A stretch of 7,571 nt of DNA from Naegleria gruberi (lineage: Eukaryota): the NCBI GenBank assembly GCA_000004985.1, contig GG739130.1; one strand, given 5' to 3'. This document shows positions 1,748 to 7,571 of this stretch, in pieces; the first letter of the stretch is position 1; each line of letters begins with the position of its first letter. Under the pieces are notes generated by a model, which saw only the letters and a program-made list of their open reading frames with translations, did not search any database and had not been told where the DNA came from. The translations under genes were made by a program, and so were the position numbers.

Positions 1748-4700
1748 NNNNNNNNNNNNNNNNNNNNNNNNNNNNNNNNNNNNNNNNNNNNNNNNNNNNN
1801 NNNNNNNNNNNNNNNNNNNNNNNNNNNNNNNNNNNNNNNNNNNNNNNNNNNNNNNNNNNNNNNNNNNNNNNNNNNNNNNNNNNNNNNNNNNNNNNNNNNN
1901 NNNNNNNNNNNNNNNNNNNNNNNNNNNNNNNNNNNNNNNNNNNNNNNNNNNNNNNNNNNNNNNNNNNNNNNNNNNNNNNNNNNNNNNNNNNNNNNNNNNN
2001 NNNNNNNNNNNNNNNNNNNNNNNNNNNNNNNNNNNNNNNNNNNNNNNNNNNNNNNNNNNNNNNNNNNNNNNNNNNNNNNNNNNNNNNNNNNNNNNNNNNN
2101 NNNNNNNNNNNNNNNNNNNNNNNNNNNNNNNNNNNNNNNNNNNNNNNNNNNNNNNNNNNNNNNNNNNNNNNNNNNNNNNNNNNNNNNNNNNNNNNNNNNN
2201 NNNNNNNNNNNNNNNNNNNNNNNNNNNNNNNNNNNNNNNNNNNNNNNNNNNNNNNNNNNNNNNNNNNNNNNNNNNNNNNNNNNNNNNNNNNNNNNNNNNN
2301 NNNNNNNNNNNNNNNNNNNNNNNNNNNNNNNNNNNNNNNNNNNNNNNNNNNNNNNNNNNNNNNNNNNNNNNNNNNNNNNNNNNNNNNNNNNNNNNNNNNN
2401 NNNNNNNNNNNNNNNNNNNNNNNNNNNNNNNNNNNNNNNNNNNNNNNNNNNNNNNNNNNNNNNNNNNNNNNNNNNNNNNNNNNNNNNNNNNNNNNNNNNN
2501 NNNNNNNNNNNNNNNNNNNNNNNNNNNNNNNNNNNNNNNNNNNNNNNNNNNNNNNNNNNNNNNNNNNNNNNNNNNNNNNNNNNNNNNNNNNNNNNNNNNN
2601 NNNNNNNNNNNNNNNNNNNNNNNNNNNNNNNNNNNNNNNNNNNNNNNNNNNNNNNNNNNNNNNNNNNNNNNNNNNNNNNNNNNNNNNNNNNNNNNNNNNN
2701 NNNNNNNNNNNNNNNNNNNNNNNNNNNNNNNNNNNNNNNNNNNNNNNNNNNNNNNNNNNNNNNNNNNNNNNNNNNNNNNNNNNNNNNNNNNNNNNNNNNN
2801 NNNNNNNNNNNNNNNNNNNNNNNNNNNNNNNNNNNNNNNNNNNNNNNNNNNNNNNNNNNNNNNNNNNNNNNNNNNNNNNNNNNNNNNNNNNNNNNNNNNN
2901 NNNNNNNNNNNNNNNNNNNNNNNNNNNNNNNNNNNNNNNNNNNNNNNNNNNNNNNNNNNNNNNNNNNNNNNNNNNNNNNNNNNNNNNNNNNNNNNNNNNN
3001 NNNNNNNNNNNNNNNNNNNNNNNNNNNNNNNNNNNNNNNNNNNNNNNNNNNNNNNNNNNNNNNNNNNNNNNNNNNNNNNNNNNNNNNNNNNNNNNNNNNN
3101 NNNNNNNNNNNNNNNNNNNNNNNNNNNNNNNNNNNNNNNNNNNNNNNNNNNNNNNNNNNNNNNNNNNNNNNNNNNNNNNNNNNNNNNNNNNNNNNNNNNN
3201 NNNNNNNNNNNNNNNNNNNNNNNNNNNNNNNNNNNNNNNNNNNNNNNNNNNNNNNNNNNNNNNNNNNNNNNNNNNNNNNNNNNNNNNNNNNNNNNNNNNN
3301 NNNNNNNNNNNNNNNNNNNNNNNNNNNNNNNNNNNNNNNNNNNNNNNNNNNNNNNNNNNNNNNNNNNNNNNNNNNNNNNNNNNNNNNNNNNNNNNNNNNN
3401 NNNNNNNNNNNNNNNNNNNNNNNNNNNNNNNNNNNNNNNNNNNNNNNNNNNNNNNNNNNNNNNNNNNNNNNNNNNNNNNNNNNNNNNNNNNNNNNNNNNN
3501 NNNNNNNNNNNNNNNNNNNNNNNNNNNNNNNNNNNNNNNNNNNNNNNNNNNNNNNNNNNNNNNNNNNNNNNNNNNNNNNNNNNNNNNNNNNNNNNNNNNN
3601 NNNNNNNNNNNNNNNNNNNNNNNNNNNNNNNNNNNNNNNNNNNNNNNNNNNNNNNNNNNNNNNNNNNNNNNNNNNNNNNNNNNNNNNNNNNNNNNNNNNN
3701 NNNNNNNNNNNNNNNNNNNNNNNNNNNNNNNNNNNNNNNNNNNNNNNNNNNNNNNNNNNNNNNNNNNNNNNNNNNNNNNNNNNNNNNNNNNNNNNNNNNN
3801 NNNNNNNNNNNNNNNNNNNNNNNNNNNNNNNNNNNNNNNNNNNNNNNNNNNNNNNNNNNNNNNNNNNNNNNNNNNNNNNNNNNNNNNNNNNNNNNNNNNN
3901 NNNNNNNNNNNNNNNNNNNNNNNNNNNNNNNNNNNNNNNNNNNNNNNNNNNNNNNNNNNNNNNNNNNNNNNNNNNNNNNNNNNNNNNNNNNNNNNNNNNN
4001 NNNNNNNNNNNNNNNNNNNNNNNNNNNNNNNNNNNNNNNNNNNNNNNNNNNNNNNNNNNNNNNNNNNNNNNNNNNNNNNNNNNNNNNNNNNNNNNNNNNN
4101 NNNNNNNNNNNNNNNNNNNNNNNNNNNNNNNNNNNNNNNNNNNNNNNNNNNNNNNNNNNNNNNNNNNNNNNNNNNNNNNNNNNNNNNNNNNNNNNNNNNN
4201 NNNNNNNNNNNNNNNNNNNNNNNNNNNNNNNNNNNNNNNNNNNNNNNNNNNNNNNNNNNNNNNNNNNNNNNNNNNNNNNNNNNNNNNNNNNNNNNNNNNN
4301 NNNNNNNNNNNNNNNNNNNNNNNNNNNNNNNNNNNNNNNNNNNNNNNNNNNNNNNNNNNNNNNNNNNNNNNNNNNNNNNNNNNNNNNNNNNNNNNNNNNN
4401 NNNNNNNNNNNNNNNNNNNNNNNNNNNNNNNNNNNNNNNNNNNNNNNNNNNNNNNNNNNNNNNNNNNNNNNNNNNNNNNNNNNNNNNNNNNNNNNNNNNN
4501 NNNNNNNNNNNNNNNNNNNNNNNNNNNNNNNNNNNNNNNNNNNNNNNNNNNNNNNNNNNNNNNNNNNNNNNNNNNNNNNNNNNNNNNNNNNNNNNNNNNN
4601 NNNNNNNNNNNNNNNNNNNNNNNNNNNNNNNNNNNNNNNNNNNNNNNNNNNNNNNNNNNNNNNNNNNNNNNNNNNNNNNNNNNNNNNNNNNNNNNNNNNN

Positions 4701-6712
4701 NNNNNNNNNNNNNNNNNNNNNNNNNNNNNNNNNNNNNNNNNNNNNNNNNNNNNNNNNNNNNNNNNNNNNNNNNNNNNNNNNNNNNNNNNNNNNNNNNNNN
4801 NNNNNNNNNNNNNNNNNNNNNNNNNNNNNNNNNNNNNNNNNNNNNNNNNNNNNNNNNNNNNNNNNNNNNNNNNNNNNNNNNNNNNNNNNNNNNNNNNNNN
4901 NNNNNNNNNNNNNNNNNNNNNNNNNNNNNNNNNNNNNNNNNNNNNNNNNNNNNNNNNNNNNNNNNNNNNNNNNNNNNNNNNNNNNNNNNNNNNNNNNNNN
5001 NNNNNNNNNNNNNNNNNNNNNNNNNNNNNNNNNNNNNNNNNNNNNNNNNNNNNNNNNNNNNNNNNNNNNNNNNNNNNNNNNNNNNNNNNNNNNNNNNNNN
5101 NNNNNNNNNNNNNNNNNNNNNNNNNNNNNNNNNNNNNNNNNNNNNNNNNNNNNNNNNNNNNNNNNNNNNNNNNNNNNNNNNNNNNNNNNNNNNNNNNNNN
5201 NNNNNNNNNNNNNNNNNNNNNNNNNNNNNNNNNNNNNNNNNNNNNNNNNNNNNNNNNNNNNNNNNNNNNNNNNNNNNNNNNNNNNNNNNNNNNNNNNNNN
5301 NNNNNNNNNNNNNNNNNNNNNNNNNNNNNNNNNNNNNNNNNNNNNNNNNNNNNNNNNNNNNNNNNNNNNNNNNNNNNNNNNNNNNNNNNNNNNNNNNNNN
5401 NNNNNNNNNNNNNNNNNNNNNNNNNNNNNNNNNNNNNNNNNNNNNNNNNNNNNNNNNNNNNNNNNNNNNNNNNNNNNNNNNNNNNNNNNNNNNNNNNNNN
5501 NNNNNNNNNNNNNNNNNNNNNNNNNNNNNNNNNNNNNNNNNNNNNNNNNNNNNNNNNNNNNNNNNNNNNNNNNNNNNNNNNNNNNNNNNNNNNNNNNNNN
5601 NNNNNNNNNNNNNNNNNNNNNNNNNNNNNNNNNNNNNNNNNNNNNNNNNNNNNNNNNNNNNNNNNNNNNNNNNNNNNNNNNNNNNNNNNNNNNNNNNNNN
5701 NNNNNNNNNNNNNNNNNNNNNNNNNNNNNNNNNNNNNNNNNNNNNNNNNNNNNNNNNNNNNNNNNNNNNNNNNNNNNNNNNNNNNNNNNNNNNNNNNNNN
5801 NNNNNNNNNNNNNNNNNNNNNNNNNNNNNNNNNNNNNNNNNNNNNNNNNNNNNNNNNNNNNNNNNNNNNNNNNNNNNNNNNNNNNNNNNNNNNNNNNNNN
5901 NNNNNNNNNNNNNNNNNNNNNNNNNNNNNNNNNNNNNNNNNNNNNNNNNNNNNNNNNNNNNNNNNNNNNNNNNNNNNNNNNNNNNNNNNNNNNNNNNNNN
6001 NNNNNNNNNNNNNNNNNNNNNNNNNNNNNNNNNNNNNNNNNNNNNNNNNNNNNNNNNNNNNNNNNNNNNNNNNNNNNNNNNNNNNNNNNNNNNNNNNNNN
6101 NNNNNNNNNNNNNNNNNNNNNNNNNNNNNNNNNNNNNNNNNNNNNNNNNNNNNNNNNNNNNNNNNNNNNNNNNNNNNNNNNNNNNNNNNNNNNNNNNNNN
6201 NNNNNNNNNNNNNNNNNNNNNNNNNNNNNNNNNNNNNNNNNNNNNNNNNNNNNNNNNNNNNNNNNNNNNNNNNNNNNNNNNNNNNNNNNNNNNNNNNNNN
6301 NNNNNNNNNNNNNNNNNNNNNNNNNNNNNNNNNNNNNNNNNNNNNNNNNNNNNNNNNNNNNNNNNNNNNNNNNNNNNNNNNNNNNNNNNNNNNNNNNNNN
6401 NNNNNNNNNNNNNNNNNNNNNNNNNNNNNNNNNNNNNNNNNNNNNNNNNNNNNNNNNNNNNNNNNNNNNNNNNNNNNNNNNNNNNNNNNNNNNNNNNNNN
6501 NNNNNNNNNNNNNNNNNNNNNNNNNNNNNNNNNNNNNNNNNNNNNNNNNNNNNNNNNNNNNNNNNNNNNNNNNNNNNNNNNNNNNNNNNNNNNNNNNNNN
6601 NNNNNNNNNNNNNNNNNNNNNNNNNNNNNNNNNNNNNNNNNNNNNNNNNNNNNNNNNNNNNNNNNNNNNNNNNNNNNNNNNNNNNNNNNNNNNNNNNNNN
6701 NNNNNNNNNNNN
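1748..6712. other. Assembly gap or masked block, 4965 consecutive N, no sequence information
   Basis: Direct reading. The N-run begins right after ...atattga at 1741-1747 and ends right before tgagatgt... at 6713. The track ORFs crossing it translate to poly-X. Confidence 0.99.
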
Positions 6713-7003
6713 TGAGATGTATAACACGATGGTAGAGTTGCATAGAGTGGTCATTTTCCAGATTTTCATCCATGTTACTCAGTTGACTAGATGGTATGAA
6801 AGGGATGAAATCTTGAATATGAAAGTTAAAATAAACTTGATATTCAATCTCTACACATCGAATGGAGCATTTACATGTATAATTTGTTGATTGAAGTGAT
6901 GTTTTTGATAGACTTTGTCTGACCTGTCCATCTTTAAATACCTCTTTGTAAAATCAATATTTACATTCCCATGGTACCATTTCTGATTCTTATGATATGA
7001 AAT

Positions 7004-7018
7004 GGGTTTGGGTTTGGG
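7004..7018 (+). repeat. Interstitial telomere-like motif, GGGTTTGGGTTTGGG (2.5 units), about 350 bp internal to the terminal array
   Basis: An exact match to the terminal repeat unit, embedded in unique AT-rich sequence (aaatGGGTTTGGGTTTGGGagactgtagggtaaatcc). The adjacent tagggtaaa is another G-rich telomere-like fragment. Confidence 0.8.
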
Positions 7019-7367
7019 AGACTGTAGGGTAAATCCATTACCCAAATTTAGTTGTCCAATTGTTGAAAATTGACTTTTACCAATATCATACTAGACGTTG
7101 TGCACTATATAATAAAAAAGAAATGGAATTTTAATTCACTGTACTTATTCAGAAAATCAACTCTGAAAACTAGTGTTTAACTTTTATTTTTCATTTCTTA
7201 GTAATAAGTATGACTTGGAACACAATCATTTCAAATATGATAGATACACATATGAGTTGACTATAATCATAAAAATATTTGAAAAATATAAAGTCTAGAA
7301 AAAGTTATAAGGCACTGCTTAAAACATAAAGATTTTTACCCTGTTGGGTCTGAAATTTCAAAGTTGA

Positions 7368-7571
7368 GTTGGGTTTGGGTTTGGGTTTGGGTTTGGGTTT
7401 GGGTTTGGGTTTGGGTTTGGGTTTGGGTTTGGGTTTGGGTTTGGTTGGTTTTGGGTTTGGGTTTGGGTTTGGGTTTGGGTTTGGGTTTGGGTTTGGGTTT
7501 GGGTTTGGGTTTGGGTTTGGGTTTGGGTTTGGGTTTGGGTTTGGGTTTGGGTTTCGGGTTTGGGTTTGGGT
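7368..7571 (+). repeat. Telomere-like tandem hexamer array (GGGTTT)n / (TTTGGG)n of about 32 units, running to the window edge. The G-rich strand reads 5'->3' toward the end.
   Basis: Perfect GGGTTT units run from 7371 to 7442 (12 units). A degenerate patch follows at 7443-7452 (GGTT GGTTTT). Then 17 perfect units run 7453-7554, a single inserted C sits at 7555, and further units continue to the last base. The window ends mid-unit, so the array probably continues. Short G3T3-type tandem repeats with occasional variant units and this strand polarity are the classic signature of telomerase-added telomeric DNA. Confidence 0.9.

Follow-up and report, generated by a model that had tools for sequence, protein, structure and literature searches.

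A pure (TTTGGG)n array closing a small draft scaffold is probably a chromosome-end telomere

The stretch of DNA analyzed here (the window, 7,571 bases) closes with an array of GGGTTT units that we read as a telomerase-type telomere of a eukaryotic nuclear chromosome, caught where a small draft scaffold ends. We put the probability of this reading at roughly 75 to 80%. It is favored because the array has the correct polarity, is pure over about 200 bp, meets non-coding DNA at an abrupt junction, and contains irregular units that break the reading frame. It is favored further because the same unit marks chromosome ends in Heterolobosea, both in the literature on Naegleria gruberi and in the contigs of an environmental assembly, JAESGV01.

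Tandem Repeats Finder (TRF) and unit parsing delimited the terminal (GGGTTT)n array at 7369-7571 on the + strand, with a period of 6, 34.0 copies, 96% matches, and a score of 376. The array extends up to the last base of the window, 7571, and nothing follows it within the window, whose odd length suggests that the record may stop at this point. Its G-rich strand is the + strand and runs 5'->3' outward, toward the window end, which is the polarity of a telomeric array. The unit is also of the telomeric kind, being short (within 5 to 8 nt), G/T-rich, and repeated in tandem. In all of this, the earlier note, which had described about 200 bp of GGGTTT reaching the last base with the G strand pointing outward, was accurate. 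An array of 34 copies cannot have arisen by chance.

Direct parsing of the array gave 31 perfect GGGTTT units on the + strand. Twelve of them occupy 7371-7442 and are followed at 7443-7452 by an irregular block, GGTTGGTTTT, which takes 10 nt where two units would take 12 nt and thus moves the repeat register by -2 nt. A further 17 perfect units fill 7453-7554, and a single extra C at 7555, 17 nt from the window end, then gives one 7-nt unit. After this C come two perfect units and, finally, GGGT. The extra C could be a true variant or, we infer, a miscalled base where a read begins. Both places had already been picked out as variant units, and the parsing resolves them into the 10-nt block and the extra C. 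The units TTGGGG, TTAGGG, and TTTAGGG and the unit TTTTGGGG each have zero occurrences in the window, which upholds the previous statements that TTGGGG is lacking and that the unit differs from TTAGGG and TTTAGGG.

These irregular units bear on the proposal that the array is a coding hexanucleotide repeat, which would specify a linker of repeated dipeptides (NP, KP, or TQ from one strand and GL, GF, or WV from the other) comparable to those of bacterial surface proteins. Bacterial genes frequently contain (AAACCC)n / (GGGTTT)n as a coding microsatellite (loci L121-L240). We scanned three public collections, namely, prokaryote genomes, viral sequences, and metagenome contigs, for (GGGTTT)6. In the prokaryote genomes, 110 of 123 arrays were internal, and 47 of the 86 testable internal arrays lay within open frames of 200 codons or more. 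At 558 bp, an array in Companilactobacillus nantensis (NZ_AZFV01000010.1; locus L196, 1372-1929) was the longest; it encodes an (NP)93 linker within an 812-codon frame, the product of which has the appearance of a surface protein. In the window, however, the length changes of -2 nt and +1 nt throw the frame off twice inside the array, and no frame stays open across it. All frames close at most about 25 codons from the junction on its proximal side, and the flank is without coding signal, in contrast to the single frame within a long open reading frame (ORF) at the Companilactobacillus locus. We give a coding origin of the array almost no chance.

The window is not continuous sequence but consists of 1,747 bp, a run of 4,965 N (1748-6712), and 859 bp. 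The run of N, which the earlier note omitted, accounts for two thirds of the window and represents either a sized gap in the scaffold or sequence that has been masked. The array sits on the 859-bp contig, which is joined to the remainder solely by scaffolding across the gap. The real sequence of the window is AT-rich, with a GC content of about 30%. A layout of 1.7 kb, a sized gap, and 0.86 kb, adding up to 7.6 kb, would fit paired Sanger reads of a single clone about 8 kb long and, with them, the Sanger-era draft assembly of N. gruberi.

Between the gap and the array lies a unique, AT-rich, sub-terminal flank (6713-7368) with no convincing coding frame. The change from flank to array at 7368/7369 is abrupt, with ...AAAGTTGAG on the flank side and TTGGGTTT... 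on the array side. Within this flank, a 15-nt interstitial mini-array, GGGTTTGGGTTTGGG, lies on the + strand at 7004-7018 (TRF row 7003-7018; repeat family D2). It is located 350 bp inward of the terminal array, has the same polarity, and is the sole other copy of the repeat in the window. After the mini-array, at 7027-7043, a small palindrome (GGGTAA..TTACCC) runs into a C-strand unit, CCCAAA, at 7041-7046. Together, the mini-array and the palindrome (7004-7049) may be what is left of a former chromosome end or the trace of a rearrangement in the subtelomere.

Because the telomere-bearing contig is just 859 bp, probably represents one or few reads, and is linked through a gap, an assembly or cloning artifact has to be considered, in which either a read is chimeric or telomeric reads of another locus were misjoined to this flank. 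A chimera would nevertheless still require genuine (GGGTTT)n DNA of the same organism, and the junction and the same-polarity mini-array at 7004-7018 resemble a natural subtelomere. Such an artifact is, in our estimate, very improbable.

The left flank (1-1747) is likewise unique and AT-rich (about 30% GC) and is apparently non-coding. Under the standard code, its longest open frame has 55 codons, compared with a median of 72 codons in shuffled sequences, and no convincing ORF was found in the flanks under genetic codes 1, 4, 10, 27, 29, and 30. A 55-amino-acid frame at the left edge was considered as a gene and set aside; it has a protein-like look, yet it gave neither a Pfam match nor a homologue among 5.8 billion proteins. 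None of the eight mechanical ORFs of the window has an exact-sequence match on record, and Pfam, Rfam, and tRNA scans of the window gave no matches. The 30-mer at 7339-7368, directly before the array, was absent from the prokaryote genome, viral, and metagenome contig collections, so these collections contain neither the window nor a relative. Both flanks were compared by blastn with 257 fetched loci, and the left flank was compared with plasmids and phages; neither comparison gave matches.

We also examined the composition of the left flank. The earlier note had called the flank dense in TGA triplets, and this is so in the left flank, where TGA occurs 77 times in 1,747 bp, compared with 38.3 +/- 5.8 times in shuffles. 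TGA and its complement, TCA, each lie about 2-fold above the expectation from base composition (odds of 2.0). The motif ATTGGATTGA occurs at 1-14 and again at 85-98, a related motif, ATTGGATTGT, occurs at 533, and the strand is skewed toward G over C and T over A. The excess of TGA and TCA, the recurring motif, and the skew may reflect decayed repeats.

Another proposal is that the array is a ciliate macronuclear telomere, either a mixture of TTGGGG and TTTGGG of the Paramecium type or, in a different ciliate, pure G3T3. The DNA of Paramecium has a comparably high AT content, and the first Paramecium assembly was reportedly a gapped Sanger draft as well; both points count for a ciliate origin. 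So does the unit, as TTTGGG is one of the two units of Paramecium telomeres, in which TTGGGG and TTTGGG are randomly mixed as a result of misincorporation at one template position (PMC13085455), in agreement with what the earlier note says of Paramecium. We treated this mixture parametrically, with G3T3 fractions of 50%, 70%, and 90%. None of the 31 clean units of the array is TTGGGG, and the probability of such an outcome in a random mixture is 5e-10, 2e-5, and 4e-2, respectively.

The flank argues in the same direction. Read in the ciliate code, the left flank has no TGA-free frame longer than 193 codons, less than the median of 236 codons in shuffles, and TGA is twofold overrepresented. The weak TGA-free frames and the TGA excess are a misfit with gene-dense Paramecium macronuclear DNA. 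Frame 0 of the minus strand, which is nearly open under the ciliate code (124 + 193 codons), was rejected as coding sequence because shuffles yield longer TGA-free frames. Furthermore, the AT-rich contigs that we examined with correctly oriented pure arrays (those of JAESGV01 and the contigs L007, L064, and L077) have long standard-code ORFs. Thus, we found neither the random interspersion of the two units nor a gene-dense flank in the ciliate code, and the earlier doubt about a ciliate or Paramecium origin, with TTGGGG missing and the flank non-coding under the ciliate code, is well placed. We regard a ciliate telomere as improbable.

The motif itself and its place at the end of a contig need to be weighed with care. 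Among the metagenome contigs, 84 of 120 arrays were internal. Terminal arrays in metagenome contigs other than those of JAESGV01 showed no polarity bias, as 14 were oriented like a telomere and 11 the other way round, a pattern that would be expected from assemblers breaking at repeats. Since the repeat is common in bacterial genes and its terminal copies outside JAESGV01 are without polarity bias, motif and end position alone are weak evidence. The earlier note had proposed a probable chromosome-end telomere. That proposal stands as the best-supported reading, given the polarity, the junction, and the irregular units, but the contig-end position is weaker evidence than had been assumed. The lesson for method is that contig-end position is no evidence by itself; what convinces is a consistent polarity over many ends of one genome, as in JAESGV01. 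In GC-rich metagenome contigs, we also observed short (GGGTTT)n runs that adjoin CCCTAA/CCCTAG (L051) or GGGGTT (L090 and L109), and these tracts may be mixed or degenerate telomeric tracts of other eukaryotes.

These counts speak for a rival reading, in which the array is a common type of hexanucleotide microsatellite within a chromosome or an extended interstitial block that resembles a telomere. In that case, the assembler would have failed to extend through the repeat, as it evidently may do elsewhere, given that many of the terminal arrays outside JAESGV01 are assembly breakpoints and that internal arrays are common in both the metagenome and the prokaryote collections. The attachment of the 859-bp contig only via the gap fits as well, and genomes with terminal repeats frequently have internal blocks of them, too, so that both often coexist (PMC3622300). 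Several features of the window nonetheless speak against a microsatellite. The polarity is correct, although by itself this had a prior of 50%. Over its 200 bp the array is highly pure, and the flank gives way to it abruptly. Reads of at least 800 bp would not be stopped by a repeat about 200 bp long unless the array were far longer. Finally, TTTGGG has been documented as a candidate telomeric unit in N. gruberi, the genome of which is AT-rich and uses the standard code. We consider a microsatellite unlikely, while granting it some weight, and a telomere remains the reading that we prefer.

The clearest support for TTTGGG as a chromosome-end unit came from JAESGV01, an environmental assembly (IMG 3300037860). 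All 12 of its array-bearing contigs (L005, L028, L029, L040, L054, L078, L080, L084, L085, L086, L106, and L120) have the array at an end or at most 44 bp from one, in the telomere polarity, and every array is joined to a different unique AT-rich sequence. Irregular blocks resembling the one at 7443-7452 of the window occur within the arrays of three independent contigs, L084, L085, and L086. The organism uses the standard genetic code and has PPR-E-DYW genes. In this assembly, genes or a retroelement nearly abut the terminal repeats.

Next, we considered which lineage these contigs represent. A P4-flippase encoded in JAESGV01 shares 62% and 58% identity with proteins of Acrasis kona, compared with about 45% for the next full-length matches. 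When the DYW-PPR protein of L086 served as the query, PPR proteins of plants dominated the matches and no taxon emerged. The A. kona loci fetched by way of its flippase genes include no true chromosome end. Acrasis is a heterolobosean. The flippase being closest to that of A. kona, JAESGV01 would therefore be a second heterolobosean lineage, besides Naegleria, with pure (TTTGGG)n ends.

Three other AT-rich, standard-code contigs (L007, L064, and L077) also carry a terminal array with the correct polarity. In 3-mer composition, L007 and L077 are the nearest to the flanks of the window (r = 0.76 and 0.74), a likeness that is weak evidence and suggestive only. Together with the GC content of about 30%, it is the sole support within the window for a heterolobosean source, as the window has no gene that could be placed in a phylogeny. 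We nevertheless take a heterolobosean amoeba to be the most likely source, at slightly better than even odds, with N. gruberi itself at slightly below even odds. Cluster look-ups with proteins of L007 and L077 gave no names. L007 (26% GC) contains a 796-amino-acid ORF at 2505-4895, which belongs to a cluster found on five contigs from JGI/IMG, Logan, and ENA. This ORF has no Pfam match, and by eye its C-terminal half resembles a mobile element of the tyrosine recombinase type.

In a survey of 143 genome assemblies, TTTGGG was put forward as a candidate telomeric repeat of the heterolobosean N. gruberi (Fulneckova et al. 2013, PMC3622300). Candidates were judged in that survey by where on a scaffold an array lies and which way it points at the end; the work was done in silico, and its authors call for experimental confirmation. 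A TTTGGG telomere is therefore already known as a candidate in N. gruberi, and the array of the window is mechanistically nothing new. The earlier note had held that a pure G3T3 telomere would be worth noting, but such a telomere is not new in view of the 2013 survey and of all of the array-bearing JAESGV01 contigs. The array matches both in its purity.

We searched the literature for other occurrences of the unit. The TeloBase paper and a nanopore paper on N. fowleri make no mention of Naegleria telomeres, and in the literature searched we found no statement that TTTGGG is the unit of Heterolobosea as a class. Units reported elsewhere are TTGGG in a scarab beetle, TTTGG in an eriophyoid mite, and TTTGGGTTTG in a Hyposoter wasp. 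Plain TTTGGG as a documented animal unit was not found in the beetle, mite, and wasp telomere papers. Apparent reports of TTTGGG as an arthropod telomere in the mite and beetle papers were rejected, because what lies behind them is either the unit TTGGG or a ciliate-derived probe, which yielded no signal in the beetle study.

Assuming a telomere, the origin of the array can be pictured along familiar lines, by analogy with telomerase systems. Telomerase would add (TTTGGG)n 5'->3' onto the 3' end of the chromosome, and its RNA subunit would carry a short template containing CCCAAA that is copied repeatedly. The irregular units would then be products of slippage or misincorporation, although a sequencing error may account for the extra C. 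Proteins that protect the end would be expected to be recruited by the duplex repeats and by a 3' G-overhang. Runs of G3T3 are able to form G-quadruplexes.

A true telomere at this position would mark one chromosome end in a fragmented draft and would be consistent with the A-less TTTGGG reported for Naegleria. It would be useful for assembly finishing and for the search for a matching telomerase RNA template. Given the published N. gruberi candidate and the Acrasis-related JAESGV01 contigs, TTTGGG may be the telomere unit of Heterolobosea as a class. If so, the window would be a further data point for TTTGGG having replaced the ancestral TTAGGG early in Heterolobosea, at the base of the class. 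A less likely reading is that the window stems not from N. gruberi but from a lineage for which no pure TTTGGG telomere has been described.

Known repeat systems resemble the array to different degrees. The bacterial coding arrays of (AAACCC)n / (GGGTTT)n have the identical repeat and are sometimes longer (up to the 558 bp in C. nantensis). However, they are internal, in frame, and inside long ORFs, whereas the array of the window is terminal, breaks the frame, and lies in non-coding DNA. Tetrahymena (TTGGGG), Oxytricha (TTTTGGGG), the scarab beetle, the eriophyoid mite, and the Hyposoter wasp (TTTGGGTTTG) share with the window short, A-less units made of G and T only and the same polarity logic. 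Their units differ from TTTGGG in length and in G:T ratio. The macronuclear and micronuclear telomeres of Paramecium use the TTTGGG unit itself, and by analogy they and the window array would both be classed as telomerase products. Paramecium arrays, however, mix TTGGGG with TTTGGG, whereas the window array is free of TTGGGG and its flank is unlike ciliate coding DNA.

The JAESGV01 arrays share with the window the TTTGGG unit, its polarity, the abrupt junction to unique AT-rich DNA, and occasional irregular G/T blocks. The flanks of the two are without sequence similarity, and JAESGV01 genes run close to the telomere, whereas the flank of the window is non-coding. The assembled JAESGV01 arrays are also shorter, at 36-139 bp compared with about 200 bp, presumably as a limit set by short reads. 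The candidate telomere of N. gruberi (PMC3622300) resembles the window in its identical and pure unit, in arrays that lie at draft scaffold ends in the expected orientation, and in an AT-rich genome.
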